NCBI GenBank assembly: GCA_964016885.1
Contig: OZ024743.1
Coordinates: forward strand, 177,444,001 to 177,508,000
DNA from: Eledone cirrhosa
Taxonomy: Eukaryota
Direction of reading: 5' to 3'
Length of the DNA stretch: 64,000 nt
Shown here: positions 30,771-61,345 of the stretch, piece after piece
How positions within the stretch are numbered: position 1 is the first letter of the stretch
Layout of the letters: every line of letters starts with the position of its first letter
The notes under the pieces: generated by a model
Database searches by the model: none
Told to the model about the DNA's origin: nothing
The model's input: the letters and a program-made list of their open reading frames with translations, nothing else
Made by a program: the position numbers and the translations under genes

Positions 30771-30793
30771 AATAATAATAATAATAATAATAA
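30771..30793. repeat. (AAT)n tract between Tx1 copies A and B
   Basis: aataataat... directly between the 5' end of A and the 3' tail of B. Confidence 0.95.
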
Positions 30794-31027
30794 TTTCATT
30801 TATTAGCCACAAGGGCCGACATGTAAGGGACAATACAAAGACAGGGACAGTGGGGGTTTACAATAAGGTCGAGTAAAAGTGCACAATGGCAAGACTAATT
30901 TAACAATGAAAATATAAAAATATAAATAAACATTGCGTAAATATAACAAAATAAATTCCCCAATCCTGAACCACCCTGCGCTTCTAGGGCACCCAGGGAG
31001 AGCACCCCTCTCCTCAAGTTAGCTAGC

Positions 31028-34000
31028 CTATAGACGCATGGTCAGAGTAGGCCCATTCACACGAGCTATTCTCGCCACATTCACCCACCTTTTAGCAAAT
31101 GTACTGGGGGGCAGCACTTCTCTCTCCACCCTCACTTTCCTTTCCACGTGAAACTTGAAGAAGTTGATGAGGGATTGGCCGAAGAGAAAAGTGTCTGTCT
31201 TTAGTCCTTTCAACCTGGTCCACCATATAATCTCTTTCGCAACTGCCACCAGACAGAGGAAAACTTCCTGCTCTTCCTGACCTAAGGAAGGCGGTGGATC
31301 GATCTTCACTATGGACTCGGCCGATAGCCGGATTCGTTCCACACGCGACAGTAGCTGTTCGACATAACTCCACAAGTCAGTAATGGACAAGTGCGTGCAG
31401 ACGGTTTCGTCGTTCTGTGCACATCCATCCTGGGCAGGTCCGTCTGACAGCACTTCCGTGGCTGTAGAGTTTATCCCGAACCGGCAGTGCCCCCGGTAGC
31501 ACTGCCAAGCGAGGGATTTCTGGAAATTGTCCATCGTCCCCGGCTCAAAAGTCCTCCGGTACAGACTGGTCAGTTCGACTTCGTCGAGGCCCAAAGCTTC
31601 TCCGAGTGCGTCATCGCACTTGCCCACCACTAATCCTCTATAGAACTCGAGAGTGGAAGTTCCACTGATCGCATTGGTAGAGGGCAGTGAGTGCCTGGCA
31701 ACATTCCAGGTGCCAGTCACCCAGTCTCAGTCTCTTCTTGACCCAGGACTGCAGCTCAGTCAAAGAAATGAGCTGCGGAAAGGCCCGTCTGATAAACGGC
31801 GACCACACCTGTTCACCGTTGAGGCAGAATATCTGGAGATGTCGCAGCCTCAACGCATGTCTGCGCAGATGGACCTGCGTAGACGGTGCTGGCAGCAGAT
31901 GGACCGCAGCAGATGGACCGCCTCACCAACGGAAATTGTCCCCTCCACAAGAATTTGAAGAGGAACCGTTCCAACTTGACGAGGCGCGGACGGGGGCAAG
32001 GCACGACGGTCAGGCGGTAGTAGATGACGGACGCGATGTACGCATTCGCCACCTCCGCGCGACCTTTCAGTGATAGCTTCCTCCCAGCCCATTTTTAGGT
32101 GAGACTGGCTACTCTGCTCGTTACCTCGTCCCAATTCTTTTACACTTGGAGGTCTGGTCCGAACTAAACCCCGAGCAACTTTACCGGTCCGTCCGTCCAG
32201 CGCCCCACGACGCTGTTGGACGGCATGGGCTTGCCTCTCCAGGTTCCGAGCTGCAAGCCCACCGACTTTTCCGGGTTAAGTTTGGCTCCTGTCAACCTTT
32301 CATATTCCTTCAATAAGGTGCCGACCACCTCGATTTCTGAGGTGTTCGACACCATCACGGTGATGTCGTCCGCATAAGCCGACACCGCCTTTCCACGTCC
32401 CGGTTCGAGCGGGATGCCCTGCAACAGCTCCAGCTTCCGCAGTAAAGGCTCGTGAGTCAATACGTACAGAAGGGAAGAGAGAGGGCACCCTTGACGAACC
32501 GCTCGGGAGAGCCGAAATGGTTCCGAGAGGTGTCCATTAACCTTGACCACCGAGCGTGTGCCGCTGTGCATTGTAACGATCCAGCTTCTAAAGGCAGGGC
32601 CGAAGCCAGCTGCTTTGAGGACAAACTCCAGATACTGATGGTCGACCCTATCGAATGCTTTCGATTGATCTAAATTGATCAGTGCCCCACCGAAGCCAGG
32701 TTTACACCCTACCCTATCTATGATGTATCGCATGAGGTGGCGATTGTCGTGTATGGACCTGGCCGGGATTACGCAGGTTTGCGCCTCCCCAACCAAATCC
32801 TCGACGACAAGCGCCAATCTCTTTGCTAACACCTTCGCCAAAATCTTAAACTCCCTTTTGAGCAGAGTTATGGGCCTGAAGTTGTCTAATGTATCCCTCT
32901 TGTTCTCGTCTTTCCTTATCAGCGTCACCACTCCCCTGCTCACAGAACTGGGAATACTCCCATTCTGCTGCCAGTTGCAGTAGAGTGTTTCGAGGAGTTC
33001 GGAGAACAAGTCTGGCATATTTACGTAAAGCTCGTAGGGCAGGCCATCCAAACCGGGTGACTTGCGCCTCATGCAGCCGACAAGTGCGTCCTGAATTTCG
33101 GCTGAAGTAATCGGCCTTTCGCAGCGCTCAGCGTCGACCGTCGAGAGTTGCGGCAATCTCGTGTCTGTCTCGGTTCGCCAAAGACCGAATTGTTGTTTTA
33201 TTACCACGCTGCGCCTCCGCCACGCGGGCCCATCGAACAGCTTTAGTTCCCTCGTTTCTCAGCGCACGCGTCTTAGCTCTGACAATGCAACCTTCGTGTT
33301 TGGCATTGAAGAAATGGTCTAATGCCATTATCGCCGCTAGCACGTCAGTTGCGATGCCACTACAAATAGCCTCGTCTAAGTTATCTACCAGCTCCCCCTC
33401 CTTTCTATTTTTCTCTAACGCTAGTTCTTTGCTGAACTCTATCGAAGTTACTCTAATCTCTCTTTTGAGAGCCACCCACCATCTGTTGTTGATGACCCCC
33501 TGTCAACTTTTGCTTAACTAAATTGTTGACTCGGTCCCTGTAAGCCTTACGTGCCGGAAATGACATGTTCAGCTTCCAGTAACCCGGTCCTAACCTACGC
33601 GTTTTATTTAGGTCGACCGTACAGATCACAAATTTGTGATCTAAATAGGCGACCGTTTTAAAAAGTGGACAGCCCACACTATTTCTATCTATTTTCCTAA
33701 TGAAAATCCTGTCTATATACGATCTAGATGACCCCATTCGGTTGGTCCATGTCCATACTGGCACATTGGGGAAATCTAGTCGATACCTGTCAGACAGTTG
33801 GAACTGGCTGAGTAGGTGTTTGAGGCTTTTGCACCCCCCGCTCCTATCGGCTACTCCCACACAATCCCAGCGTGCGTCTAAGATGCCATTCCAGTCCCCC
33901 GCTAACAGTAAAGGGCGAGACGTACCCAGAAAGGTCTCCAGGCGCCTAAAGAAGTCAGGTCGTCCGGCCCCTGTAGGGGCGTAGACGGCCAGCAGTCTAA

Positions 34001-34316
34001 AGGCACCACCTTCGCTACTGCTCACATCCAAGACCACCAACTTACCGTCCGGGTCCCGGAAGATCGACCTTACCTCGAGATCCAGTCCTTTCCTAAACAG
34101 CACTGCCACCCCAACCCCCATTCCCGGCCTGCTAATAGATGCGAAGATCTGATAGTCGTCGAAAATGGGGGCTAGTGCGCGCGTGTCGGAAATTCTGGTC
34201 TCGCTGACGGCAATCACATCCATATCCAGCGACCGGAGGTCGTTGAGCAGGTGACCCTGCTTCCAGTGTGACCCCAGGTCGCAAACATTTAAACTTCCTA
34301 CTCTTAATATGGCCAT
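31028..34316 (-). pseudogene. Tx1 copy B ORF2 (APE endonuclease, reverse transcriptase, C-terminal Cys/His region), frameshifted
   Basis: Motifs GSLNV/SETR, GDWN, IDRIF, LDHK (APE); KSPGLDG, FRPITLL, LDQSKAFDRV, VRQGCPLS, AYADD (RT). They are split across ORFs 33453-34316, 33128-33475, 32164-33207, 31813-32052 and 31028-31720. Confidence 0.92.
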
Positions 34317-34325
34317 ATTGGTAAG

Positions 34326-36262
34326 CTAAGAGAGAGAGAGGGAAGGTTTACTTACCTCCCAGGTCTTGTGAAGGTCGGGTGGTTCGACCTCCATGGTTGG
34401 TGGGGTTTCTTTTGGGAACCCCTTTAAAAGTCTTGATGTGGGTTTCACATTCGGGGTTCCCACGTCTTGAGGAAAGCTCTCTCGAATTTCTTTGAAGGAA
34501 TTGAGTGACATTCGGACCAGAAGCAAATCTTCTGGCACGCAAAATGTGCTCATTTCAAAAATCTCCCCCTCTATTTGAATGTCCTCGCTTCGCGCTAAAA
34601 GGGCCATCAGTTTATCGTTGGCCCTTCTGACAAGCACGAAGTTTTTAACATTTTGATGGTGTGGTTTTATTTGTTTTCGTTTTGGTGACTGTGGTGGCGA
34701 TGGTTTTGGTGGTGTTGTTTCGGGTATGTCTATGTTTGTTGTAGGTGTGGTGTCTGCAATTTCAGGTATTTGTGTGTTTATTTGTACTTGTGTTTGTTTA
34801 GGTTGTTTGCGTTTCGGGGATTGTGGAGGTGGTGTCGATGTTGCTGTTGGTGATGATGTTATTGGGGAAGTGTTTGCGTTAGTGGTGTCTGTATTTTTTG
34901 TTGTGTATGTTTCTGTGTTTTGTTGGGGCTTTTTTTGTGAGTTTTCTCTGTTTTTTTGCATCTTCGGAAGACAAAGGGTCTGTGTCTGTGTCTGTGTGTG
35001 CGTTTATTGTTTTGTCTATGTGTATAATTGGGGGTAGGGGGAGTGGGAGAGCTTTCCTCGTTTTCTCCTTGGATTGGTTTTGGTGTTGGTGGTGATCCGG
35101 CTGCTTTTGATGTTGGTATCCATGTTTTTGTTGGTGTTGTTTTTGGTGGTGGTGGTGGTGCAGATTTCCGTGCTTACACTGGCGTTGGCAACAAAGGAGG
35201 TTTGCGACCCCCTGCATTTTTGCGCTGAGGGCAGAAGGCTTGAAGATGTGTTGCTTCCCCGCAGACGAAGCAGCGTGGCCTTCCCTCAATGATTAGTTGG
35301 ATTGTTGTCCCGTCCTGCAGGCGGGCAAAATCCGGGATGTTATTCATATCCTCCGGTTTCATTTGGAGAATAATCTCCAAATCCATTCCGGACCAGTCCT
35401 CTCTCTCTGTCCTTTTGATATCCAGGAGGGTAGTGTCTGTCCTCTCCTCGATTACGCATCCCAGCAGCCAGCATATGTTCATTCCTGGTGGGATGCTGGG
35501 AATGCGTACCTTTACTGTCCTTTTACCCATGTAGGACGGATGCATGATAATGCGTTCCGTTCTGCAGGGGGTCACCGAGTGCTTAATAGCGAGGGCCTCG
35601 GTTTTGAACAGTACCGAGATGGTACCGAACTGTTTGCCTCTTGCTTTGTACTCTATGTTACTTCCGATGTACTCCAAAGCGGCCTCGACCTCTGCTTGGC
35701 TGGCAGGTTCCACTTTTCGTGTCTGTACCGAAATACATCGAAAGAACACCGTCCTCCTTTGCATGGCCGCTATTGCCTCGTCCGGAATGGTCAGGTTTGC
35801 CCAGTACTTCTCCCGTTTAATTAGCCTCCACGCTTGGGCCAACTGTTCGTCTTTATCGCTAATATCAATATCAATATTCAATAAGCGCTTTGTTTTTGCT
35901 GCTGCTGCAGCAAATGTGATGTTTCTGATGCTCTTATTGTTGGTGTTGTCATTTTTGATGTTGTTATTGGTGTTGCCACCGCCATCCGTGTTTACATTGA
36001 AGCTGTCGGTGTTATTGTCGTTATTGCTCTGAGTTGTTGTTGTTGTGGTGGTGGTGGTGGCGGTGGTGGTGATGTCGTTTTCAGATGATACTGTTGCTAT
36101 CACAGAAGATTATGATGGTAGCTTTTGAGTTTTGCCTTCACATTCAGTAGAGTGGATGACAGGCATGACTGTAGCCGTCGTAGTCGTGGTGAAATCTACA
36201 GTGGCTGCCTTTAAACTTTTGACCTGAACGTTGTTTACCGTTTCAAGGTTGAAAATTTCCAT
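34326..36262 (-). pseudogene. Tx1 copy B ORF1 (gag-like nucleic-acid-binding protein), frameshifted
   Basis: ORF 35174-36103 ends in GRPRCFVCGEATHLQAFC (zinc knuckle). A Thr/Pro-rich C-terminal part lies in 34326-34961, and an upstream ATG is at about 36262. Confidence 0.8.
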
Positions 36263-36487
36263 AATTTTCTTTTGGTGGGGAAGCGATTTTTTTCGAAGTT
36301 TTTAAAAATAAATCTTAATATTCGGGCTTAAGGCCTGAATATTGAGAGGTATCCCTCTCTTTAAATCAAGATGTGTACCTTAAGTTTCGTTAACGACAAG
36401 AAAATACAAAAAATGACACTTTAAAACAGCTTAAAGTTACGAACCTTTTCCCCCGCAGATTTGTACTGTCTTCACACATGTGCGGCC

Positions 36488-36511
36488 AATGATAATAATA
36501 ATAATAATAAT
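36488..36511. repeat. (AAT)n tract between Tx1 copies B and C
   Basis: aatgataataataataataataat at the head-to-tail junction. Confidence 0.93.
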
Positions 36512-39500
36512 GCTTTCTTTATTAACCACAAGGGTTTACATAAAGTAGACATTAAGGACAGTACAGGACAATACAGGACCGTACAAATGGGCATTTCTGC
36601 GTGTAAAAAAAACAGGGGATGTAATAAAAAATAACAATGAAAAATTCCCCAATAGGGGGGAGACTTCCGAGGGACATTTGTGGAGAAAGCCCATTAAAAG
36701 GCCGCAGTGACCCTGACCACCAGGGCAAGTGCCCTCTCCCAGTTTTCCACCTTTAATTTACAGACAGATACCCAGAGTAGGCCCATTCACACGGGCGATA
36801 CTTGCTTCTCTCACCCATCTTTCAACAAAATGCTGGGAAGAGAGCACTTCCCTCTCTACACTGATTTTCCTTTTCAAATGAAATTTGAAAAAGTTAATCA
36901 GGGCATCACCGAAGAGGTAAGTGCTCGTCTTCAGCCCTTTCAAACGTGTCCACCATACTATCTCTTTCGCCATGGCCACCAGACAAATAAAAACTGCCTG
37001 GAGTTCCCGGCTAAAGGACGAGGGCAGGGAAATCCTAACGATGGACTCAGCTGATAGCTGGATCCGTCCTACACGTGACAGCAGGTTTTCCACATAAACC
37101 CACAAGTCAGCAATGCTCGGACACTGGACGAGTGCGTGCAGGACGGTTTCGTCGCCCTGCGCGCATCTCGGACATGCCCGGCTGACGGCACCTCCGTGCC
37201 TGTAGAGTTTATCCCGAACTGGCAAAGCTCCTCGGTAGCACTGCCAGGCCAGGGATTTCTGGAAGTTGTCCATAGGCCCCGGCCCGAAAGTCCTTCCGAA
37301 GAGATTGGCTAGTTGATTTTCGTCGACGCCTAGAGTTTCTCCAAGTACGTCGTCGCTCTTCCTCTCCACTAATCCTCTATAGAACACCAAGGTGGAGTTT
37401 CCACCGATCACATTGCCCGATTGGTCGAGGGCTGTGAGCGCCTGAAGACATTCCAGTCTCCAAGCGCTCCCTCTCTGTCTTCACTTGACCCAGGACTGCA
37501 GCTCCGTCAAGGAGACGAGCTGGGGAAAGACGTGTCTAGCAAACGGCGACCACACCTGATCACCGTCGAGGAAGAGGTGGAGATGTCGTAGCCTGAGCGC
37601 GTGTCTGCGCATCATCATCCACGGCATGCCCATCCCTCCACGTAGCGGGTGTTGACAGCAGATGGACCGCCTGACGATTGGAGCGCGTGCCTTCCACAAA
37701 AAGCGAAAGAGCAAACGTTCCAGCGCAGTCAGGCGGGGCTTAGGACAAGGTACGACGGTCAGGCGGTATTAGATGACGGACGCGATGTACGCTTTGGCCA
37801 CCTCCGCTCGACCTTTCAGAGATAGCTTCCTCTCCGCCAATTTCTGGGTGAGAGAAGCCACCCTGCTCGTCACCTCGTCCCAGTTTTTGTCCGTCTGGAG
37901 GTCCAGACCGAACCAGACCCCTAGCAATTTAACCGTCCGTCCATCCTGCGCCCGACGACGCTGTTGGACGGCATGGACCTGCCTCTCCAGGTGCCGAGCT
38001 TCAGGCCCACTGACTTTTCCTGGTTGATCATTGCTCCTGTCACCGCTTCGTATTCACTTAGTGTAGTGCCGATTGCCTCGATGTGTTTGGCGTTCGACAC
38101 CACTACGGTGACATCGTCCGCATATGCTGACACGGATCTTCCGCATCCTAGTTCGTGCGGGACCCCCCTCAACGTCTCCAGTTTGTGCAGTAATGGCTCG
38201 AGAGTCAATACGTACAATAGGGACGAGAGGGGACATCCTTGGCGGACCGAGCGCATGATGTTGAACGGTTCGGAAAGGTGACCGTTCACTCTCACCACAG
38301 AGCAGATGTCGCTGTGCATGGCAGCGATCCAGCCTCTGAAGACGGGTCCAAAGCCAGCCGCCCTCTGGACTGGCGCTAGGTAACGATGGTCGACCCTATC
38401 GAAAGCTTTCGACTGATCTAAATTGATCAAGCACCCACCTGTGCCAGGTTCCCTAGCTACCTTCTCTATGGTGTATCGCATGAGCTGGAGTTTGTCGTGG
38501 ATGGATCTGTCGGGAGTTGCGCACGTCTGTGCCTCTTCCACCAGACCACCAACGACAAGCGCCAACCTCTTTGCTAGGTACCTTGGCCAAAATCTTAAAC
38601 TCTGTGTTTAGCAGATTTATGGGCCTGAAATTATCTATGTTATCCCCCTTGTTCGGATCCTTTCTCAGCAGCGTCACAGCTCCTCGGCTCACAGAGCTGG
38701 GAATTCTCCCGTTCTGTTGCCAGTTGCATTAGACGTCCGCCAAGAGGACTCCGAACAAGTCTGGCATCTGTACGTAAAGTTCATAGGGCAGACCATCCAA
38801 ACCAGGCGATTTACCCCTTGTGCAGCCAGTTATTGCCTCCCGTACTTCAGCGGCTGTTATCGGCTTTTCGCAACACTCCGCCTCAGTGGCCGAGAGCCGC
38901 GGCAGTTCGTCGAGGTAGACACTAAAGTCCATCCGCTGCCCCCCGAACAGCTGCGCGAAGTGTCGCTGAAAAGCTTCACACATTTGCCCGGGATCGAGTA
39001 GCATGCGCCCGTCGTGGTCCACCAAAGACCGGATCGTGGCTTTGTTGCCACGACGCGCCTCCGCCACTCGGGCCCATTGAACGGCTTTCGTCCCCTCGTG
39101 TCTGAGAGCACGCACCCTAGCTCTGACAACGCAGCCTTCGTGCTTTGCATTGAAGAATTGGTCAAGGGCCAATTACGCCGCAAGTACGTCTGTCGCGATT
39201 CCTTTGCTAAGCGCCTCGTCTAATTTTCTAACTAATTCTACCTCTGCTCTATTTTTCTCTATTGCTAAAGCCTTACTAAACCTAATGGACTCTATTCTAA
39301 TTGCTCTTTTCAGAGCAAACCACCACTTGTTGTTGACGATGGCCCCCGTCAAAATACTCTATCTAGATATGATCTGGATGACCCTATGCGAATTGTCCAA
39401 GTCCACATGTGTATTTATTGCTGTGCATTTCTTTTTCTGGGGGTGGGGTGTGGTTCTGCTATTTTCTTGTCGTTGTTGCTGGGTGTGTGTGTTTTGTTGT

Positions 39501-41396
39501 TGTGTTTGCGATCTTGGTGCTTGTGGTGGTGGTGTTGAAGGTGTTGTTGTTGGCGGTGGGGTTGCCTCCGGTGGTGATGGTGGTACTAGTGTGGGTGGTG
39601 ATGGTGTTGGTGGTGTGGCTGCTGTAAGTCTCTTTGCAGTATCCTTTACCCTTTTTTCGTTTCTTTCCTCCTTTTTCGAAGGCGACGATGCGCTGCTTCT
39701 GCGTTTGTGCCTTCTCGCGACCTTTTGCCATCCTTCTCCCACCTCACACTCCATGTCCGATTCTGTGAGGTCGGGGAGGGGTACCAGCTCCACTCTTTCA
39801 CTTGTTGTTGTTGGTGATGTTTGCAGTGGTGTCTATGTTGCAGCTGCAGTAGGTATTGCTGTTGTTGTTGTTAATACTTCCACTGCTGCTGCTGTTCTTG
39901 ATTTCCGTGGCGTGGGTATGGGTGCCATGGACCTATCCTTCCTGGTTGCCGCCTGTCCTGTTGCTGGTAGCAGTGGAGCCGGTTTCGGAAGGAGGTGGGT
40001 TTTCTCCTTTCTCAGGGTCTTCTCATTGCAGAAGGCCCTGAGGTGAGTCTTCGAAAGCATTTCGGGCGTTTGCCCTCAACACTTACGGGCAGTTGAGTGC
40101 CGTTATCGAAGTCTATCACATCCGGGATAGCTACGATGCAATACTGCTTGGTTTGGATTAACATCTCAATGGAGGTGCCGACCCAATCTTCTCGTACTTT
40201 TTTCTGTACTTGCAGTATAGTTGTTTTGTCCTAGATTCCGACGAGGACAGACGCGGCCAGCCAAGGGGGACGTGGCCATCCCGGGGGGGGGGGGGGGTCA
40301 GTTTGACCCTCACCATTTTTTGTCTGCAGTAGGAGGGCACCAACACCATTTCCTCGCTCCTTAGGGTCACTAGGGATTGAGCGTTTGCCTCCTGGGGTGT
40401 GGAAAAAAGCACGTCCACGGTGGCATATTTCTTGCCTCGGGTGATATGCGTTTTCCGCTCCCACACAGACCCTAAGGCTTTTTGTATTTGAGCCTATGTG
40501 GCTCTTTCAACCCTACGGGATTTTGACCGTACAGTGCTGTTGGGTTTCTAAAGATTTTTCGGCTGCCTTGCAGATTGCTCGGTGTCCGGTTTTCGTTACC
40601 ATCTTCTTTGCTTCCTGTAATTCCTCATTTGTTATAAGGATGGTTTCCAGGTTCTTTGCGATACCTGCAAACGAGATTGTTTTTTCTTTCTTGTTGTCGT
40701 CAGAGCTGCTGTTACTTTTGTTGTTGCTGCTGGTACTACGACTGCCGCCGCCGCTGTTGCTGTGGTTGTTGTTGTTGTTGCTGCTCCTGCTGTTGTTGTT
40801 GCTGTTGCTGCTAATGATGTTGTTGTTTGTGCTGCTGCTGATGCTGTTGCGGCTGCTACTGTTGTTTTCCTTGTCACTGTTGCTGCTGCTGTTGTTATTA
40901 CGGCTGCTGCTGCTATTATTCATGACGTCAGAAGAATGAAATGGGTTTCCGTATTAACCGCACACATTTTCGTCGTTGTCGTCGTCGTGGAGAAATGTTC
41001 CACGTTTTGCACGTGATCTTGGAAACTATCAGAAACTATATTTTTATTTTTATTTATTGGTGTCGCTTGCGAAAGAGAAGGGAGGGAGAGAGACAATCTT
41101 CTCTCTGATGTAGTGACGATTGAGGAAGAAGAAGACGGAATGAGTGGGAGTGACTTGTGAAAATTCTTTTTTGTAGCCATGTTTTTTTTTCGGTTTAAAA
41201 TAAATATTGGGCACAAAACCCCAATAAGCGGTTATTTAACCCCGAAGGGCCAAATAATGGTCAGAAAGACCCCTCTCACGAGGAGGAGGGTGTTTTTGTC
41301 TACAATTTGGTTAAAGTTTTAAACAATTTACAATTGTTATAGCGGTTAAAATTTACTATACCTTACAGAGCCGAGCCTCCGTCAACCATGGCATTC
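36512..41396 (-). mobile_element. Tx1/L1-clade LINE copy C (same family as A), APE domain deleted
   Basis: RT motifs LDQSKAFDRV, VRQGCPLS and AYADD (37921-38565); CCHC CPRCAQGDETVLHALVQC (36758-37411). ORF1 starts at about 41180 and is fused near 39405 to the end of APE (VDLD). The 3' end reads CCCTTGTGGTTAATAAAGAAAGC(ATT)n. Confidence 0.9.
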
Positions 41397-41453
41397 AATA
41401 ATAACAATGATAATGATATTATTATTATCAATAATAATAATAATAATAATATT
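41397..41453. repeat. Degenerate (AAT)n/(ATT)n tract between Tx1 copy C and Dong copy 1
   Basis: aataataacaatgataatgatattattattatcaataataataataataataatatt. Confidence 0.9.
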
Positions 41454-44400: not shown

Positions 44401-44773
44401 CTATAAAAACATTTGAAAAATTGAGTAAGTATAAGGACCTGGTGATAGAAATTGGAAAAATGTGGAAATTGAGAACTAAAACAATACCAGTGGTTGTAGG
44501 CGCTCTAGGAATGATACCTAAGGTGTCTAATGATTACTTATCGCAAATCCTAGGAAACCCGCATATAGGAGAAATACAAAAGATAGTACTAATGGGAACT
44601 GCCCATATACTAAGGAAGATTCTGTCAATATAAGTACATCACAAGTCTAAACACCTAAATATGCATGTGTGTGTATGTATGTTCTTTCTTGAACATGGCG
44701 GACCTTGTTGTCTCTTGAGGTCACTGGTTGTGACTTGGTGATAACTCGTATGAACATAAGGCAAGATAAATGC
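41454..44773 (+). mobile_element. R4/Dong-clade RT-RLE retrotransposon copy 1, decayed, RT core deleted
   Basis: Motifs KREKWSGEDN, KSPGKDKI, NYRPI, YLPRKEGGRGL, WLASSGLKSETEGLIISAQDQ, CX2C...HIISMC, RHD, RPDI...LLID...KLSKYKDL (restriction-like endonuclease). The element ends in (AAT)n. Confidence 0.9.
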
Positions 44774-44789
44774 AAATAATAATAATAAT

Positions 44790-50140: not shown

Positions 50141-50141
50141 C

Positions 50142-50525
50142 CTCCTCTGTCTACACTATATAGAACAGCCAAATAACAGCAATTTCACCACCACAACAAT
50201 CTAGATACACCACTTATCCCATCACTCCTCTGTGTACAATAAGTACAACAGCCAGACAACGGCAATTTCATGATTACTATTATTGTATCTCAAGTTTCCT
50301 CAAAATGTTTAATTCAAATATTAAGTAAATATGTCAACACATATATTAAACATACGCGAGAAACCGCATAGATATACAGATCAAACAAACGCACCCTACT
50401 ACAGTCTATTCAACAGAACTCAGTAACGACACGCCATCACTACTGTCACCGCCGCCACCACTCCATCATTGCTACCACTATCCTATCACCGCCCCTACCA
50501 CTCCTTCATTGCTACCACCACTATT
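50142..50525. repeat. Unassigned spacer containing two imperfect short tandem duplications (about 83-bp and about 39-bp period)
   Basis: ctcctctgt..acagcca..acagcaatttca recurs at about 50143 and 50225; tcaccgcc..ccactcc.tcattgctaccac recurs at about 50446 and 50486. Confidence 0.6.
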
Positions 50526-50757
50526 CCCCCACTACCTTCTGTTAACTTAAGAAAGGGGAAGGTGGCGGTATCACTAGAAAAGGGAGAGGCTAGCAAAAGA
50601 TATAAATAGACTGACTTAGTGACCCGGTCAAACGTCAACGACTATGGCACTGCTGGCTCCCCCCTTCCCCACCAACAATAGCAAACACCCAAGCACCACC
50701 ACCGACATAGCCAACAACAACAACAGGCAACTTCAACAAAAAGTATATTATATTATT

Positions 50758-50993
50758 AATAATAATTTCATTCTTAAGCCACGCAATGCTCACATTAAGG
50801 AACCACTCATGATAATAACAATTTAAAAAACAACAAAATAGAAAACCCATGACCAAGAAATACCGGGATGGCGGCCGGCGGGGAATAGCCGTGTCTCTAG
50901 GGGAGGACCCCCGCCCTCTAGTTTTGGTTGACACTCGTCCTAGAAGTGGTAACACGAAATGATTACCCCTTGGCGGTTAAGGATAAAACGCGA
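50758..50993 (-). mobile_element. Possible short 3' fragment of a further Tx1-related element
   Basis: Plus-strand aataatttcattcttaagccac...acattaagga resembles the copy B terminus aataatttcatttattagccac...acatgtaaggga and starts at an AAT tract. No clear protein motif is present. Confidence 0.4.
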
Positions 50994-51006
50994 CAAAATA
51001 TAGTAA

Positions 51007-54000
51007 ATATCAAATGATAAAATCTCATACCGGATCGGCCGTCACCCGGGTCAAAAAGGGCCACGTCCCTCAGAGAGGAACCAGACTGGGGTCGAAAAAT
51101 CAGCTAATGGTTCAAACCTTCCCATCACTTCGGGGCTGGAGGTCTCCCATAACCGGAATACTCTTACTGTGGCCCTCCATGCTCACCACCAAGAAATCCA
51201 AAGAAAAAGATAGAAAAATGGTCAAGGGAAGACAATAAAGAAGTCCTTGAGACTTTCTACACTGCCATGTACTACCCATCAAATAGATCGAATACAGAAC
51301 AGACATATATCAACTGGAAAAAGAAACATCCCGAAAACAGAGGCTATATTGAATGAATGAGAATGAACTTGCCAACTTGAAGGATGAAATTATGATCGAA
51401 TGGATGAAAATGAAAGAATCTGACATGGAGGAACGAGACACCCTCCCTAAGATCCAGAATTCCAAACAGAACCCAAAGATGATACACAAGACTAACATAA
51501 TTCTCAAAAACATTATCATCACAAACAAACTAAACATTACTGATTTAAATCATCTCTATTATGCATCGGCTAAAGTCACCACTCACTTATGTGGAGTGGA
51601 AATGAAAAAACAAAGGACTCCCACGAGAAATCTATTTGGCAAGAGAACATCAATCGCCAAATAATCCTTCTCCGATCTGACATAGAAATTTTAACAAACT
51701 ATAAAGTAGGTGAACATGTTAAACAAACTAAACTTAGAAAATTGAAAAGAAAATAGAGTATAAAATTAACAAGTGACATAGACATGCTGATAGAAATCAT
51801 CAAGCAAAAAGTGTCGGCCAAAGCTGCTCGTATAAGGCACTTTGAAAAACGATCTAGATTCTATAAGGACAATAATATGTTCAAAAACAACCAAAGAAAC
51901 TTCTACAGAAAAATTGGCAAGTCAACAATAACTGCTAAATCAATACCACCCAAGGAGGAAGTGCAAGAATTCTGGGAAAAGATCTGGGCCGAAGAAAAAG
52001 TTCATAATATACATGCCCCATCGATAGACAGACAAATGAAAGATACATTCACCTTGAGGAACAAATATGGGAAAATATAACAGTTGAACAGTTGCGTTTT
52101 GACTCTTAGAAAAACCAGCAAATGTAAATCCCCAGGAAAAGACAAAATACCAAATTTTTGGATAAAAGCCTTCACATAGTCTAATGAGCCCAACTTTACA
52201 ATGAAATAGTTAAGGAGCCAGAAAAGGTACCATCATGGCTAGTTAATGGCATTACAATCCTACTTCCGAAGAATGATGAGACAAACAAACCCCAAAATTA
52301 CAGACCGATAACTTGCTTGACCACAATGTATAACATTTTAACATCAGTCCTAACTGAATATACATATGAAAGATTGTTCTACATATGACCACCTGCTAAC
52401 AAATGATCTATTTCCCAATGAGCAGAAAGCGTGTCAACGAGGCTCATATGGCTGTAAGGATCAGCTTTTGGTTAACAAAATGATACTGGAAGATTGTCAT
52501 AATAGACACAAAAATCTATCAATTGCTTGGATAGATTATAAAAAAGCATTCGATAGTTTGCCATACAGTTGGATTGAAAAATGTTTAGAGATTTTCAAAA
52601 TATCTCCCGTTGTCAGGAGGTTCCTGTCATTCAGTATGAAGACATGGAAAACGACACTCCTTTTGAATAGTGAAAAAAAATGACTGGAAGCTGGAGAAGT
52701 TTATATTAATTGTGGAATTTTTCAGGGTGACTCTTTATCACCGCTTTTATTCTGCATCGCACTTATGCCATTAAGTAAAATGCTCAATGAAACAAAACAT
52801 GGATATAAAGTCTATGACAAAACCATTAATCACTTGTTCTACATGGATGACCTGAAACTATTCGCAAAAAATGATGAACAATTGCAAGGGCTATTATCCA
52901 CTGTGAAGCAGTTCAGTGATGACATTAAAATGGAGTTTGGACTAGATAAATGCGCCAAAGCAACGTTCACCAGAGGAAAGCTGCTGAAAAGTTCAAACAT
53001 TAATCTTGATCGGGGGAATGTGATAAGAGAACTTGATCAAGAGGAAACTTACAAATATCTAGGTGTTTGTGAAGGAGACGGAATCAAGCACTCGACAATG
53101 AGGGAAAGGATAAGGAAGGAATGTTACCGCAGAGTAAGAGCAATCTTAAGAACGGAATTGAATGCAAGGAATAGGATCGATGCCATAAACACGCTTGCCA
53201 TACCAGTAGTAACCTACAGTTACAATGTCATCAACTGGTCAAGCACAGAGATCCGTAGGCTCGATACAAAAACTTGAAAATTCTTAACCATGCACAGAAT
53301 GCATCACCCTAAAGCAGATACAGATAGAATATATCTTCCTAGGAAAGAAGGAGGACGTGGGTTAATCCAGTTAGACATTGCGTTGAAAACTGCAACAATT
53401 GGATTATCTACATAACTAAGGGAACCACATGATTGGATGATCAAACTCGTTTTGAAATACGAAAGGATCAAAAGATCATACTCCATTACAAAAGATGCAC
53501 AAAGATACAGTAATGGACTACAAATTTCAGAAGTCCCATTTACTGCTGAAATGGAAAACACAGAAAAAGCAAAGCAGGTAAAAGTAACTGCAAAGAAAGA
53601 ACTGCTACATAAACTGGCTAAGAAATGGCAAGAAAAGCCTCTGTATGGAAAATACCCAGAACGAGCTAACACTCCTGATGTTGACAAAGCTTTAACCCAC
53701 CAGTGGTTGGCATCCTCTGGACTGAAATCGGAGACTGAAGGACTGATTATATTAGCACAAGATCAGTGTCTGCCAACAAAAAATTACCAAGCCAACATAA
53801 TAAAAAATGGATGCAACCCATTATGCCGTGTATGTAAAAAACAACCAGAGACCATTGACCCCTAATTCCAATGTGCAGTCCTATAGCTCCAACCGAATAC
53901 CTAAACAGGCATGACAGAGCTGCACAATACATACATTGGATAATGTGTAAGCATTTTGACCTGCCCCATCAAAAGAATTGGTGGGAGCATCAACCACCTC

Positions 54001-54534
54001 CCATACTTGAAAAATATCACATCTTAATCTTGTGGAACTTTAGCATCCAAACAGACCGAAAAATAGATGCAAATAGACCTGATATAATACTGAAGGACTT
54101 TAAAAAGAGGGTATGCCTGCTAATTGATATGTCCGCCTCCAATAGACAAGAATGTATCTATAAAAACATTTGAAAAATTGAGCAAGTATAAGGACCTGGT
54201 GATAGAAATTTGAAAAATGTGGAAATTGAGAACTAAAACAATACCAGTGGTTGTAGGCGCTCTAGGAATGATACCTAAGGGGTCTAATGATTACTTATCG
54301 CAAATCCCAGGAAACCCGCGTATAGGAGAAATACTAAAGATAGTACTAATGGGAACTGCCCATATACTAAGGAAGATTCTGTCAATATAAGTACATCACA
54401 AGTCAAAACACCTAAAGATGCATGTGTGAGTATGTATGTTCTTTCTTGAACATGGCGGACCTTGTTGTCACTTGAGGTCACTGGTTGTGACTTGGTGATA
54501 ACTCGTATGAACATAAAACAAGATAAATGCAGCT

Positions 54535-54535
<1 letters not shown>
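51007..54535 (+). mobile_element. R4/Dong-clade RT-RLE retrotransposon copy 2, decayed
   Basis: Same family and same start as copy 1. It retains the RT core (WIDYKKAFDS, GIFQGDSLSPLLF, HLFYMDDLKL), CRVC..., RHD and the RLE, has a deletion of about 275 bp at about 51352, and ends in a long (AAT)n. Confidence 0.92.

Positions 54536-54596
<61 letters not shown>
54536..54596. repeat. (AAT)n tract, about 20 units
   Basis: Pure taataataa... run. Confidence 0.97.
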
Positions 54597-54600
<4 letters not shown>

Positions 54601-54937
54601 CAATACCAGTGGTTGTAGGCGCTCTATGATGATACCTAAAACAATACCAGTGGTTGTAGGCGCTCTAGGAATGATACCTAAGGGGTCTAATGATTACTTA
54701 TCGCAAATCCCAGGAAACCCGCGTATAGGAGAAATACAAAAGATAATACTAATGGGAACTTCCCATATACTAAGGAAGATTCTGTCAATATAAGTATATC
54801 ACAAGTCTAAACACCTAAAGATGCGTGTGTGAGTATGTATCTTCTTTCTTGAACATGGCGGACCTTGTTGTCTCTTGAGGTCACTGGTTGTGACTTGGTG
54901 ATAACTCGTATGAACATAAAGCAAGATAAATGCAGCT

Positions 54938-54938
<1 letters not shown>
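54597..54938 (+). mobile_element. 5'-truncated Dong copy 3 (RLE C-terminus and 3' UTR)
   Basis: Near-identical to 54235-54535, with a 41-bp tandem duplication at its 5' end; followed by (AAT)n 54939-54976. Confidence 0.9.
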
Positions 54939-54976
<38 letters not shown>

Positions 54977-55240
54977 GCTGAAAAATATTTGGGCCAGATA
55001 TCTGGAAAGCTATATCTGCAAGAGATATAGCAAATAGTGCTGACTGGCACAGTCCATGTCCTTAGAAGGGCATTATCAATTTAAATACCTTGCAAATACA
55101 TTTATTGTTTTTATGTCTTTATTGTATCATTTATATAACAGTTGATTGTTAAATATATGTATTACCAAATGTTGTCTCAGGTGTCAGGTTGACACTCGGG
55201 AATGATTTGGGAAAGAAGCAGAATTCAAAGGAAGTTTCAA
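54977..55240 (+). mobile_element. 3' fragment of a second Dong-like family
   Basis: Translates as AEKYLGQISGKLYLQEI*QIVLTGTVHVLRRALSI*, homologous to the Dong C-terminus IQKIVLMGTAHILRKILSI*. Bounded by AAT tracts. Confidence 0.75.
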
Positions 55241-55257
55241 ATAATGATAATAATAAT

Positions 55258-55375
55258 TGTTTCTACTTTTGGCACAAGGCCAGCAATTATCCCAGTGCAT
55301 TACTGGTACTTTATTTTATTGACCTCGTAAGGATGACAGGCAAACTTAACCTCGGCGGGATTTGAACTCAGACTG
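55258..55375 (-). mobile_element. tRNA-derived SINE, 5'-truncated
   Basis: Minus strand has a B-box-like GAGTTCAAATCC, a central TTTGCC..CATCC..GGTC.ATAAAATAAAGTACCAG domain (resembling the Meta/MESC-type domain, from memory) and the tail CCTTGTGCCAAAAGTAGAAACA(ATT)n. Confidence 0.8.
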
Positions 55376-55392
55376 TAAATAATAATAATAAT

Positions 55393-55570
55393 TGTTTCTA
55401 CTTTTGGCACAAGGCCAGCAATTATCTGAGTGTATTACTGATACTTTATTTTATGGACCCCATAAGGATGAAAGGCAAAGTTAACCTCGGCGGGATTTGA
55501 ACTCAGAATAGAAAGGGCCGTAACTCTATGCTGCAAAGCATGGCGTCAGACCCTCTAACGATTCTGACAA
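55393..55570 (-). mobile_element. tRNA-derived SINE, same family
   Basis: Same tail, central domain and B-box as 55258-55375, with a longer 5' part containing an A-box-like segment; head-to-tail with the previous copy through an AAT tract. Confidence 0.8.
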
Positions 55571-55748
55571 GTCAATGATCATAATCCTTTCTAACATCAA
55601 AATTATAATTTGTATCATAATAATAATAACATCAACAATAACACTCCTCAGTTTTTTTTTAATTGTTTTTCTTTCGTTTTAAAAAAATACCCAGTAGAGA
55701 TATCGTGCTTCATTGATAAACCGATTTTTTTAAATAGATGCAGTTAAC

Positions 55749-56141
55749 TCAATGTGAACTGCTAGAATCGCTTTTATCCACGAGTAGTTTATTTAAAAAG
55801 AGAGAATTCGTATTAAGATTGATATATTTAGATCCTGAAGAGCTGTTCTGTATCTTTTTCATTGGAATATAGTTTACACCTTGTGATGATTTTCGAAGAC
55901 TTTTGCAAAGCGGACTTTTTGAAGAGACATCATTTTCATAACTATTAACATTGGAGTTGTTGGATGAGAGCAAAGGAACATTTGTAAGTGAAAGAGAGAA
56001 AGAAGTAGCGTTATAATTGTCGTAATCTTCATTTTCTTGTTCTTGCTCTTGTTCAATATCTTGTTGCTGTTGCTCATTCAAATTATCTTCTTTTTCAATT
56101 AAGTCTTGTTTCAGTTGCTGTTCTTGCTGTTCTTTCTGTTG

Positions 56142-56195
<54 letters not shown>

Positions 56196-57008
56196 TTCTT
56201 GCTGTTGTAGCTGCGACTGTAATCCCTGTTGTTGACAGTTTGTTTCATCGTGACGATTGTGAAAATCATAAGGCTTAATGACATTATTGGGTTGTTTCAG
56301 CTGTAGAAGTCTGGGGAATTGCTTGTGTTGGTGATGAATTTTGTTATTGTTATTGTTGGTTTTAATGCTGTTACTGCTATTGCTGCTGCCACTACTGTCA
56401 TGACTTATTTGTTGCTCTTGTTGATTTGATTGATTGAGGCTGTCTTGAAGTTGAGGTTGAGGTTGAAGATGATGATGATGAGAGGTGGGATTTGAAGAAG
56501 GGATGGGATTAGGATGTGAATTTGTATGAGGGTGAGGATGATGATTATGGTAATGTAGAGGGAGAAGTAAGTTTTCCTCAGCATTGGTGTCTCTTTGAGT
56601 TTCAGTATTATCTTTTCTGGAATCAAACTGAGATTTATTCTCATTCTTAGGAATTGATGATTCTTGGTTCATATACAAATAATTTATATAAGAACGTATT
56701 CCAGGAACATAGCGATTACCTTTACGGTTACACGTGTTTGTGTTAATATCTTGAGATGTCTGTTTAGCAGTTTTCTTGTAGGTGTCAACTGAGCCAGATT
56801 TCTGCTCATTATTGTCATTATTGATCTCTCTATCTGATGAATTGTTCTCAGACATTTCAGATATTGATTCAGAAATCAAAGACGAATAAGAACTTTTGTT
56901 GTCATCTCTTTTAGTTAAGGAGTTCTCTAGATTAGGAAGTTCGACAAACGTTTCTTTTGAAAGATTGTATTGAAATGTCGGTAACGTATATGTCGCTGTA
57001 TTCGGGTC
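55749..57008 (-). CDS. ALK: ALK/LTK-like receptor tyrosine kinase, terminal coding exon (419 aa plus stop; low-complexity, polyQ tail)
   Basis: Acceptor ttattttag|GAC at 57009; an open 1260-bp frame in phase 0 continuing into ORF 55749-56879. It starts DPNTATYTLP, comparable to DPDVINTALP at the start of the last human ALK exon. Confidence 0.75.
56136..56195 (-). repeat. Coding polyglutamine tract Q20 including a pure (CAG)14
   Basis: Plus strand reads ctg(ttg)4(ctg)14ttg, in frame within the terminal exon. Confidence 0.9.
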
Positions 57009-57122
57009 CTAAAATAAATAAGAAACAGAAATTAATAATAATAATAATTGTTTCTACTTTTCTACTTTGTTTAAGGAGGAGGCTAGCCTGCTCTGTAATA
57101 TCCGTGGAGAGATAGAGAGATA

Positions 57123-57752
57123 GAGAGGAAACTGTGGCTCACATCGTATCCGAGTGTAAACATCTAGCTCAGACTCACTATCAAGGGTGGAGGCACGAGA
57201 TAATAGGAAAGGCGATTCACTGGCATTCATGCAAACTAAATAATTTACCACATTCTGAGAAGTGGTATCTTCATAAGCCAGAGTCTGTGGCAGAAAACGA
57301 TCGAGTGAAGGTGCTATGGGATTTCAGGATACAGACAAGAAATGTGAACACAATAGGTCTGACCTGGTAGTTTTTGACAAGGAAAATATCATGCCTGATT
57401 GTAGATGTATCCTGTCCGATTGACACAAGAGTGCAAGAAAAGGAGAGGGAGAAAATTAACCAATACCAAGTTTTAAAGTGGGAATTAAAAAGCATTTGGG
57501 ACTGTCATGGGATCAAGGTCGTTCCAATTGTCATAGGGGCATTAGGTATTTGGTACTATCTCAAAGAGTTTTCAAGGATGGTTAAAGAACATTAGTCCAT
57601 CCCACTTGTTTTGAACACTTCAAAAGGCATGTTTGTTGGGAACAGCAAGAACCCTCCTATACATCCTGAATATCTGAGGCTGCAGGTAGCGACTTGATGT
57701 TCATTTGAACAAACTTTCTTGTTAAATATCTTCAATGACTGAGACCCCAAGA
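57123..57752 (+). mobile_element. 3' fragment of a third Dong/R4-like family (intronic)
   Basis: ETVAHIVSEC, RHE, VLWDFRIQT, LIVDVSCPID..EKEREKINQYQVL, VPIVIGALG (CCHC and RLE region); ends in AAT repeats. Confidence 0.85.
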
Positions 57753-57812
57753 AAATAATAATAATGAAAATAATAAGATAAATGAAATGACAGTAATAAT
57801 AATATTAATAAT

Positions 57813-58641
57813 GTAAGACAAAAGCCAAACAGGAAAACTTGAAGGAAATTTCTAGACTGTGGCAAGAAATAACATTGCATGTGCAATACCTCAAACGAGC
57901 TTGGTAAGCTGATGTAGATGTGGAAATAAACCATCAGTGGATGCATACTACTGGTTTGAAAGCTGAAACAACAGGATTTAGCCTATCAGCTCAAGATCAG
58001 AATCTCATCTCCCGAAACTATCAAGCTAATGTCTTGCACAACGGGGCTGATACAGAGTGTAGATTCTGCAATGACATACTGGAAAGTATTGACCACTTTG
58101 TTGCAGGTTGCTCAGTCTTTGTTCCTAAAGAATATAAAACCAGGCATGACTGAGTTGGCCAATACTTACACTGGAGTATATGCCGTCACTATGATATCCT
58201 TCACCCTAAGAAATGGTATAGACACCACCCACAGACAGTCACTGAGAGAGAGAATGTTAACATCCTATAGGATTACGGGAGTAACTGATCAGATGTCGTC
58301 ATCAATGACCGAAGACAAAAAAACATGCTTGTTAATTGATACGATAATGCCTACTGATAAAAACATTTCAGCAAAAGAATTCTAGAAACTATCATACGAT
58401 GTGATAATTGAAAACCCAAATCATTCCGTTTGTTGTCGGTGCCATACGAATGATCAAGAAAGGCAGACAAATTCTTTGACCAGATCCCAGAGAAACCAGC
58501 TATATATGAGGTTCAAACGAATGTGCTGTCATAAACCGTTCACCTTCTCAGGAAGTTTCTCTTCATCTAATCTATACGTGTCTTAGGTCTCTTGTTGAGA
58601 CCCGACAGGAAGATTAAATAAAATGGAAATAAAAAAAACCC
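57813..58641 (+). mobile_element. 3' fragment of a fourth Dong/R4-like family (intronic, old)
   Basis: HQWMHTTGLKAETTGFSLSAQDQ, CRFC...IDHFVAGC, RHD, LLIDTIMPTDKNIS; ends in aataataat. Confidence 0.85.
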
Positions 58642-59505
58642 AATAATAATCTATATATTCATTAAATTGTTTCTCCACACGTAATCTTTAGTAAGAGGCG
58701 AAATATTTGTCTGCTCGGGTGAAGGAGAAGGGGGGTGAGGGGGAGAGGGAGAAGAAAAAGAAGGGTGAAGAAGGGTGAAGAAAGAAGATGAAGAAGGAAG
58801 AAGAGGACACTTTCTAACTTTGTAAATTATGCTGATACAGTTGGCAGAACAATGCACTATCAATGGATCCCAGTATCTAATTTGACGCCTCAAAACGTAA
58901 ATAAATGTTGCTTTTCATCTCTGTAATTTAGATTAAACGTGTAACCGTACAAACATCTTCAGGGCTGATCCTTATTTCCTTTTAAAAAAATACTTGAATA
59001 TTGATTATATCTCATTGAAGAAAATCTGTATGACATCATTATTTTATTCTTTTATTCTAATTTATGTGTTCAGCATTAAACGGTTTGATTATATTACTTC
59101 GGGATATGTTAAAAATAAAATGGAGGAAAAGAAGCGAATAAGTTTACATATTGATTTATTCTTAATTGCTGAAATAGAACAAAATGCTAGAATGGCATTA
59201 ACTCTAATATACTGCATGTGTTTTATTGATCCAATGAGAATATAAACCCTACTGCCTTAAACAAAACGAATACACATTGAACAGTGTTGCACTTGATATA
59301 CGAAACGAGTTGGTCGTGAATGGATCTATTTTGCTTGATTAATACTGACCTGGGGCTAAATAATAACAATACTAACATCCACAACAACAACAGTGTATAG
59401 CACCCTGGCAGAATCAATATTTTATAGTAGTATCATTGAAAGTTATAAACTAGCATTGGTTAACTGCAATAACTTAGAGTGTACAAACTTGATAAAATAA
59501 ATAAT

Positions 59506-59689
59506 TGTTTCTACTTTAGGCACAAGGCCATCAATTACTCAGTGCATTACTGGTACTTTATTTTATCGACCCCGTAAGGATGAAAGGCAAAGTCAACCTC
59601 GGCGGGATTTGAACTCAGATCGAGAAGGGACGTAACTATGCTTGAAAACATGGCGTCCGACCCTCTACCGATACTGCCAATCCACCGCC
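59506..59689 (-). mobile_element. tRNA-derived SINE with a 15-bp target-site duplication
   Basis: Same family as 55393; flanked by identical gataaaataaataat at 59491-59505 and 59690-59704. Confidence 0.88.
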
Positions 59690-59704
59690 GATAAAATAAA
59701 TAAT

Positions 59705-60068
59705 GGTTCTTGATTGAGACACAAGACAAACAAATGTAGGGAAGGGGCAAGTTGATTAAGTCGACTCCAGTACGTTACAGGTACTTTATTTTATCGACCA
59801 TGTAAGGATGAAGAGCAAAGCTAACTTCGGCGGAATGTGAAAATATTAATGGTTTCTGATTTAAGCACAAGGCCAACAGTTTAGGTAGAGAAGAAAGTTG
59901 ATTAAATCGACCCGAGAGGGTTACTGGTACTATATCTAATCGACCCCGTAAAGATTAAAAGCAAAGCTAACCTCGGCGTGATGGGAACTCAGCATGTAAA
60001 GAGTCGTAACTATATACCACAATTAATGTTGTTCGACACTCTATTCCGATTGTGCCACATCACCACCA
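59705..60068 (-). mobile_element. Two older related SINE copies (about 59705-59845 and about 59850-60068)
   Basis: They share the central domain and carry an extra gttgattaa.tcgac segment. The tail variant is CCTTGTGCTTAAATCAGAAACC-ATT. Confidence 0.75.
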
Positions 60069-60078
60069 TTATAATAAT

Positions 60079-60418
60079 TGTTTCTACTATTAGGCACAAG
60101 GCCAGCAATTACCCAGTACATAACTAGTACTTTATTTTATCGACCCCGTAATGATGAAAGGCAAAGTTAACCTCAGCAGGATTTGAACTCAGAATAGCAA
60201 GGGCCGTAACTCTATGGGTCAAAGCATAGCGTCCGACCCTCAACCGATACTGCCAATCCAATAATAATTGTTTCTACTTTTGGCACAAGGCCAGCAATTA
60301 TCCAGTGCATTACTGGTAATTTATTTTATCGACCCCGTAAGGATGAAAGGCAAAGTTAACCTCGGCGGAATTAGGGGCGTAACTCTTTGCGTCAAAGCAT
60401 GGCGTCCGACCCTCTACT
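60079..60418 (-). mobile_element. Two tandem SINE copies (60079-60259 and 60269-60418)
   Basis: Each starts on the plus strand with ataataattgtttctact..ggcacaaggccagcaatta and has the family central domain; they are joined by AAT repeats. Confidence 0.85.
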
Positions 60419-60559
60419 AATAATAATGATAATTAAATTTACTAATCAAACCTAAAAAAAGAACAACTAAACTAAATCATTAATCAGCTGGCTCTGTTAT
60501 CGACTTATTGCTGCAGTAATTAATATAAGCTTAATGCCATGTGAAGAATTAATTATAAT

Positions 60560-60770: not shown

Positions 60771-60859
60771 TCATGAGAACAAATAATAGTGGCAGAGAAA
60801 ATATAATAATTTCTTTATTTTTCTTCACTAAAATTGTGTTTTTAAACAACTTTACTTAC

Positions 60860-61154: not shown

Positions 61155-61345
<191 letters not shown>

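Follow-up and report, generated by a model that had tools for sequence, protein, structure and literature searches.

The retroelements in a 64-kb window of the Eledone cirrhosa genome (OZ024743.1, 177,444,001-177,508,000, the whole stretch analysed here; element positions are window coordinates) are stacked on AAT tracts in fixed orientations. Three classes take part: Tx1-like long interspersed elements (LINEs) with an apurinic/apyrimidinic endonuclease (APE) and a reverse transcriptase (RT), Dong/R4-like LINEs with a restriction-like endonuclease (RLE), and SINEs, or short interspersed elements. Both the 5' parts of the Tx1-like (Tx) elements and all tailed SINEs lie on the minus strand, and the Dong-like elements lie on the plus strand. 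This polarised, non-random stack is real. We hold, with moderate confidence, that the fixed and opposite orientations in AAT reflect target-primed reverse transcription (TPRT) with strands chosen by the endonucleases, one for Tx elements and SINEs and the other for Dong-like elements. The main stack occupies 28457-55630, running past the stop codon of a host kinase gene, and 26,843 of its 27,174 bases (99%) are element sequence. Small element clusters at 57033-60780 lie inside the last intron of that gene, apart from the main stack. The anatomy of the elements was established by aligning the window to itself, by Pfam and by tblastn searches that used intact homologs.

A preliminary description of this DNA had placed AAT runs at 16 coordinates, all of which are present, with at least three perfect units at 14 and two units at 59500 and 60071. 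Over the whole window, 16 AAT-class runs are found on the plus strand and a single ATT-class run inside the tract at 41397; all 17 fall within 28457-55630 or 57033-60860. Most of the AAT runs are the tails of the elements themselves. Because tails account for the runs at 3' ends, we scored instead the 12 nt outside each 5' junction, counting matches to AAT and taking at least 10/12 as a pass. The test covered 19 junctions, the 5' end of the Dong-like element D2 being left out as not placeable. AAT was found at 13 of the 19, as compared with 349 of 32,323 background positions (1.1%). Six of the 19 boundaries were placed partly by eye and 13 were fixed by alignment to another copy or an intact homolog; nine of these 13 abut AAT (p about 1e-15). 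In the main stack, all 11 elements share one polarity (p = 0.001; 0.004 for nine, with duplicates merged). The description of AAT as a polarised landing pad is supported locally, on the 13 junctions, on the non-tail tracts at 41397 and 60418, and on the polarity of 11 out of 11 elements.

The passing junctions mostly touch a neighbour's tail, so that both insertion into a tail and template jumping by the RT fit them. The discriminating junctions are 41397-41452, 60418 and possibly 50809. The first is the key junction. It is a degenerate plus-strand AAT tract of about 18 units, placed head-to-head between the 5' ends of the elements TxC and D1, and it is the tail of neither. It holds a four-unit inverted ATT patch, and in its degeneracy it resembles an old genomic microsatellite. 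The tract at 60418-60432 (plus) stands at a SINE 5' end and is the tail of no recognised element. Three other plus-strand tracts join neighbours: (AAT)8 at 30771-30794 is the tail of TxB and the 5' flank of TxA, the eight units at 36488-36511 are the tail of TxC and the 5' flank of TxB, and the tract at 44774-44789 is common to D1 and TxD, which meet tail-to-tail. The Tx 5' ends that are full-length number three and come from two families about 75% alike; each of them follows sense-strand ATT in the same phase. In total, three certain Tx 5' ends and one probable one lie at ATT, all in one stack.

Four APE-RT LINEs (TxA, TxB, TxC and TxD) were recognised. Their assignment to the minus strand in the preliminary description holds for all 5' parts, but the RT piece of the leftmost element is inverted. 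This fragment of the TxA/TxC family (28457-28950, plus, 94% to TxC) is the sole Tx piece on the plus strand; it is bordered by the satellite and by the TxA APE, and neither joint has AAT. TxA itself (28951-30770, minus) comprises the 5' untranslated region, an open reading frame 1 (ORF1) with an internal deletion, and the start of the APE. TxB (30795-36487, minus) is a full-length, two-ORF APE-RT LINE that has decayed, with three stops and five frameshifts in 752 aligned codons. TxC (36512-41396, minus) belongs to the TxA family (92-98%); most of its APE is deleted, whereas the RT and zf-RVT are retained. TxA and TxC have their 5' ends at the identical nucleotide and bear different deletions, and since these are mutually exclusive, TxA as a straight duplicate of TxC is ruled out. 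Contigs of one sequencing run (X2) continue beyond the APE break of TxC with TxA-type sequence, so the deletion is private to TxC. TxD (44790-50753, minus) is an APE-RT LINE with a possible zinc knuckle in ORF1 and a probable 5' end near 50750. That it extends to about 50750 is probable: the ORF1 motif would then lie about 680 nt away from the 5' end, as compared with 567-710 nt in the other Tx elements, and read depth is similar throughout 49900-50579 (run X1). The stretch 50134-50750 has no protein match; we read it as the variable 5' region of TxD, but a separate repeat is possible. Next to it lies a 42-nt Tx-type 3' stub (50767-50808, minus) with an ATT tail at 50748-50766, and no more than 0-2 of 1000 shuffles match the ends of TxB, TxC or TxD equally well.

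TxB, TxC and TxD are mutually 74-79% alike in DNA self-alignment and have decayed alike (0.6-1.1 breaks per 100 codons), the range for these three together with the Dong-like D1 and D2 being 0.6-1.3. In Pfam, Exo_endo_phos was matched at E 1e-12 (TxB and TxD), RVT_1 at E 1e-27 (TxB) and zf-RVT at E 1e-8 (TxC). The order of domains in ORF2, an N-terminal APE, the RT and a C-terminal zinc-binding region, fits the Tx1 clade of the L1 group, and the closest solved endonucleases are the L1 endonuclease and its chimeras. A separate ORF1 with a CCHC zinc knuckle is a feature of the Tx1 clade. The zf-CCHC match in ORF1 of TxD is weak (E 0.0035; 17.8 bits, below the cut-off of 20.8), and in ORF1 of TxB the CCHC spacing is visible with no Pfam match. 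Among named homologs of the APE-type RT, the best is that of Argonauta hians (67%). Of 1,110 homologs, the 120 listed include no named Tx1 reference, nor do the 10 clusters consulted or the matches in the atlas; the label Tx1-like is given on the architecture of the domains and on motif resemblance rather than on a phylogeny. The APE hairpin loop has a role in DNA contact, and TxB and TxD have nearly the same predicted DNA-contacting loop. Inspection by eye for a unique target-site duplication, other than AAT, around TxB or TxC found none. Three relatives of the Tx ORF2 in Branchiostoma (P0090, P0110 and P0255) have adjacent locus tags and a common longest contig of 74 kb, hinting that this lineage may also stack in lancelets.

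The RT-RLE pieces number at least seven (D1, D2, the repeated D2 end, D5, D3 and D4, with the small tandem copy included), or eight when the 41-nt tandem copy at 54599 is taken as a piece of its own, and are all on the plus strand; the six counted previously were given the correct strand, and D5 at 54977-55238 is new. D1 (41453-44773, plus) is a Dong/R4-like RT-RLE LINE truncated at its 5' end immediately before the ATG. About 570 nt of its RT are replaced by an 80-nt copy (43097-43176), 96% to the Dong 5' leader at 50914-50993, which suggests a double template switch. D2 (50823-54535, plus) is 96-97% identical to D1; its ORF starts near 51007 and its 5' boundary is uncertain. It is followed by a tail region (54536-54976, plus) made of (TAA)21, copies of 41 nt (at 54599) and 300 nt of the D2 3' end, and (TAA)12. 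D5 (plus) is a 3' piece of a separate Dong-like family (tblastn E 2e-6) whose 5' end sits directly on the (TAA)12 tail. D3 (57069-57753, plus) is an older 3' piece with CCHC and RLE and a 5' junction without AAT, and D4 (57813-58641, plus), an older 3' piece of another family, has its 5' end on the degenerate D3 tail (57754-57812). Their decay reaches 2.3 and 3.6 breaks per 100 codons, respectively. In self-alignment, D3, D4 and D5 gave no DNA match of at least 60 nt to D1, to D2 or to one another.

The Dong-like translations carry CCHC, RHD and PD..D motifs, and D2 aligns with single-ORF homologs of 1,210-1,237 aa. A single ORF with the RT followed by CCHC and a PD..D RLE, and no APE, is the Dong/R4 pattern. 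The closest solved RTs are R2 proteins, and homologs 42-74% identical, among the 120 listed, come without clade names. We take the motifs to resemble R4; the Dong label is given on architecture and motif resemblance rather than on a phylogeny. TAA is found on the sense strand at all 3' ends and at four of the five scored 5' junctions (D1, the duplicate of the D2 end, D5 and D4, but not D3). A hepatitis delta virus (HDV)-like ribozyme in the Dong leader was found neither among Rfam ribozymes at E<=1 nor by a simple descriptor, in a search limited by D1 having no leader and D2 being possibly truncated at its 5' end; the 14 Rfam matches were all far under the gathering score.

The nine tailed SINE pieces all lie on the minus strand, as had been described, each with an ATT tail and in the orientation of the Tx elements. 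Two SINEs stand head to tail at 55258-55581 (minus), with ATT tails at 55239-55257 and 55378-55392. In the kinase intron, an AAT tract with a 20-nt SINE-type 3' stub (57033-57068, minus) lies 24 nt upstream of a splice acceptor, five SINEs of two related types follow head to tail at 59506-60417 (minus) with only short AAT-like tracts between them, and an older SINE of the second type (60559-60770, minus) has a 5' junction without clear AAT. Among the nine SINE 5' junctions, four reach the AAT threshold and another three stop at 9/12. An old SINE core at 62946-63017, outside the clusters and with no visible tail, is on the plus strand, opposite to the other SINE pieces. The published octopus SINE families OK, OR1 and OR2 are described as tRNA-derived; ARAGORN found no tRNA here.

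The Tx elements and SINEs also have a 3' end in common. The last 21 nt of TxD (44790-44811) are identical to the 3' end of one SINE type, and a looser form of this motif is present at the ends of TxB, TxC and the Tx stub. Just before the tail, a four-pair stem with a CUUGU loop can be drawn, the stems differing among TxB, TxC and the SINE. Over 12 ends, 75% of cells pair, as against 8-50% for slid controls. From these sequences it is likely that the SINEs borrow the Tx ORF2 protein, which would recognise them through the common 3' hairpin. No report of such a hairpin was found in the literature searched.

On the left, the main stack ends against a 48-bp satellite array (1-28456, no strand) of 593 copies. 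The copies are 89% identical and form higher-order blocks with an 18-bp sub-repeat at 8981, 18282 and 19428. On the right lies the last coding exon of an ALK/LTK-like receptor tyrosine kinase gene (55749-57009, minus), with an open frame of 419 codons at 55749-57008. This frame matches the C-terminal part of a kinase (E 8e-45 and 2e-24; Pfam PK_Tyr_Ser-Thr), and reading it as a retroelement ORF1 was rejected. Two further exons (60860-60946 and 62385-62519, both minus) have GT/AG boundaries and are about 90% identical to homologs; the gene matches Octopus bimaculoides and A. hians proteins, and the closest solved structures are of ALK. Orthologs of the gene include XP_014778553.1 and GAB1600539.1. 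In the databases its orthologs bear the names alpha-protein kinase 1 and CSK-like, ALK being the nearest solved kinase. The last three exons (55749-62519) are intact, with a long Q/N-rich tail. At 57010-57068 the SINE stub and its ATT tail are close enough to touch the branch-point region of the last exon's acceptor. Since kinase exons flank 57033-60780, this interval is intronic and separate from the main stack. The proposal that a single tract had spanned 30771-60420 is not supported in view of these exons. A self-renewing stack grown from one tract still fits 28457-55630, but the kinase gene splits the interval, and the right-hand 3.4 kb are separate.

The region 35600-51000 was compared with reads and contigs of four of the ten listed sequencing runs, leaving out repeat rows, including 36482-36520. 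Every bin was covered in each of the four runs, and summed depth was 8.8e3-9.2e5 across all 30 bins (run X4). With all bins covered at high summed depth, the element families are dispersed and high-copy. None of the 24 listed loose ends (16,364 more existed) fell at a 5' junction. Patterns drawn from the 5' end of Tx and from the 3' end common to SINEs and Tx had no match in metagenome contigs and two in Helicobacter genomes, which we take as chance, and a protein scan of viral contigs gave no relative of the window elements.

How could two classes of LINE keep opposite orientations in one repeat? In TPRT, the nick falls on the strand that faces the sense strand of the element, and this nicked strand then primes cDNA synthesis on the RNA tail. 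As the sense strand of Tx elements and SINEs reads ATT, the AAT strand would be the one nicked for them; as that of the Dong-like elements reads TAA, the ATT strand would be nicked for these. We propose that the Tx APE nicks the AAT strand and the Dong-like RLE the ATT strand of the same repeat, so that APE and RLE endonucleases would have converged on opposite strands. Each insertion would split the tract and add a tail of the same polarity, and targets would multiply. A first tract beside the satellite could have grown into the 27-kb stack, and smaller tracts in the kinase intron into the separate clusters. Such renewal of the target would give head-to-tail, head-to-head and tail-to-tail joins, all with AAT on the plus strand. 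Human L1 inserts at a TT/AAAA break (PMC6007223). L1 nicks the T-rich strand and the Tx orientation is the opposite, so the Tx pattern is not the default L1 preference. A further-reaching version, in which an octopod Tx1-like APE nicks the AAT strand specifically, drives the octopus SINE expansion via the CUUGU hairpin, and AAT tracts, SINEs and both classes of LINE form a self-feeding system that builds much of the octopus repeat landscape, is conceivable, and we offer it tentatively, with more doubt than belief.

Several observations weigh against the reading of strands chosen by the endonucleases and against the SINE link. Of the 19 5' junctions, six fall short of the AAT threshold: D3 and the stub at 57049 (57068/57069) and SINE 55393 (55581) do so clearly, and three SINEs narrowly, at 9/12. 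Only four or five of the 13 passing junctions (two at 41397, one at 60418 and the stub at 50809) are not clearly on a neighbour's tail. The four separate clusters agree in polarity without reaching significance (p = 0.125), and a single region of 32 kb supplies all the evidence on junctions. The hairpin shows weak covariation (the observed measures are equalled by 12-66 of 500 shuffles) and a stability not above that of shuffles (z -0.85 to +1.25). The TxD stem is broken, since it pairs a Tx-like 5' arm with a SINE-like 3' arm; with arms of mixed type, the TxD end is possibly a Tx/SINE chimera joined at the common loop. Finally, TxB, TxC and TxD are similarly decayed, so their age is compatible with the formation of a concatemer at one time.

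An alternative explanation does without targeting: the RT jumped from the 5' end of one RNA to the tail of the next, elements built up passively beside a satellite that tolerates insertions, and the AAT runs are only tails. It would account for the AAT-positive 5' junctions that touch a neighbour's tail, for the similar decay of the three Tx elements and for the 28-kb satellite bordering the stack, and the tail duplications of D2 and the leader copy in D1 do show local template switching or recombination. It cannot produce the head-to-head tract at 41397 or the tract at 60418, however, nor tail-to-tail junctions on one tract (44774 and 55239), nor an opposite orientation fixed for all Dong-like pieces across at least four families whose decay ranges over 0.6-3.6 breaks per 100 codons. 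It would also need three full-length cDNAs of 5-6 kb from two families in one event. We consider it improbable. Less probable still is that the stack and its polarity come from duplication on the spot, from AAT tracts recombining with one another or from misassembly. The same-family pairs TxA/TxC (92-98%) and D1/D2 (96-97%) and the repeated D2 3' end are what duplication would leave, but none of the elements is identical to another, the families number at least three for Tx and at least four for the Dong-like pieces, the adjoining host gene is intact, and tract recombination would itself still require AAT at the 5' ends.

The closest competitor keeps the AAT tracts as landing pad and the polarity as fixed, with the RNA tail instead of the endonuclease setting it: enzymes loosely specific for AT would nick, and priming would succeed where the nicked strand pairs with an (AUU)n or (UAA)n tail. 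Such guidance yields every junction pattern in the window, the six AAT-negative 5' junctions suit a relaxed system, and terminal microsatellite-like repeats have been proposed to steer the sites of RTE LINEs and SINEs (PMC6007223). Three points speak for the endonucleases instead. The ATT phase does not vary among the full-length Tx 5' ends (three of three), and the tail takes no part in forming this junction; the predicted APE hairpin loop is nearly identical in TxB and TxD; and site specificity is usual in the Tx1 and R4 clades (PMC4640811, PMC6007223). We thus hold guidance by the tail to be unlikely, and prefer choice of the strand by the endonucleases.

Every ingredient of the proposed system has a precedent, and both APE/RLE convergence on one target and opposite orientation on one repeat have been described. 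Dong targets TAA (PMC3812793), and in silkworm it has sense-strand TAA at the 5' junction (PMC3774820), the same polarity as in D1-D5; an HDV-like ribozyme at its 5' end has also been shown there (PMC3774820). Dong of the R4 clade, from B. mori, Anopheles and Biomphalaria, resembles the elements found here in its single ORF with RT, CCHC and PD..D and in TAA at both ends. Nothing essential differs, save that the tracts are here common with an APE lineage. Among Tx1-clade families, Kibi, Koshi and crocodilian elements target TC, TTC, TTCC and TTTC microsatellites, and target specificity is accepted there once a single sequence type is found in more than 20% of the flanks (PMC4494074). Like the Tx elements, these are two-ORF APE-RT LINEs in a microsatellite. 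Compared with Koshi, the sense-strand target in this cephalopod host, (ATT)n or (TTA)n, is one letter from TTC if TTC also refers to the sense strand. An ATT-targeting Tx1-like lineage was not found in the literature searched, Repbase Reports and the supplements of PMC4494074 being beyond that search.

Sharing of one target by APE and RLE lineages is known from Keno (APE, Tx1 clade) and Utopia (RLE, NeSL clade), which reached the U2 snRNA target in parallel (PMC4640811). These have identical 3' flanks and the same orientation, whereas here the target is a microsatellite, entered in opposite orientations and renewed by the tails. TRAS and SART occupy silkworm telomeric repeats in opposite orientation and in arrays (PMC10088271), likewise two LINE families opposed in one simple repeat; both are R1-clade APE elements in a telomeric setting, in contrast to APE against RLE in an internal microsatellite. 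SINEU, with Tx1-Mar in crocodilians, shows sequential tandem insertion into a common Tx1 target (PMC4494074). There, too, SINEs are assigned to Tx1 machinery, but the target is Mariner and the link is by target and 5' head, as opposed to the ATT tail and the common 3' hairpin motif described here. In Octopus vulgaris, Dong-R4 is abundant and recently active (five families, 1,129 insertions), both Dong-R4 and L1-Tx1 have active families, and SINEs make up 11.6% of the genome (PMC13282606). The main text of that paper, so far as accessible, holds no target analysis, and the accessible text of the octopus repeat papers PMC13282606, PMC8967140 and PMC9115989 neither analyses target sites nor gives the SINEs a LINE as partner. 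Within the same limits, PMC8967140, PMC9115989, PMC3747384, PMC4758252 and PMC11203168 mention neither a Tx1 specific for ATT nor a LINE that would be the partner of octopus SINEs. Nor was a report of the combination of Tx1-like elements, Dong and SINEs on AAT found in a search that did not extend to Repbase Reports and most subscription papers. The ATT target of a Tx1-like lineage, its opposed sharing with Dong and the link to the SINEs seem not to have been reported before.

What is gained is a new case that can be tested, and not a new principle. If the locus is representative, the Tx elements would carry a new sequence-specific APE endonuclease, and the locus would offer a natural pair of APE and RLE acting on the same repeat from opposite strands, in which it could be asked whether the enzyme or the tail makes the choice. 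About two-thirds of octopus genomes are repeats, with large fractions of SINEs, Dong-R4 and L1-Tx1. On the same condition, one microsatellite would explain the landing sites of three classes of element, their hotspots and the enzyme that spread the SINEs.

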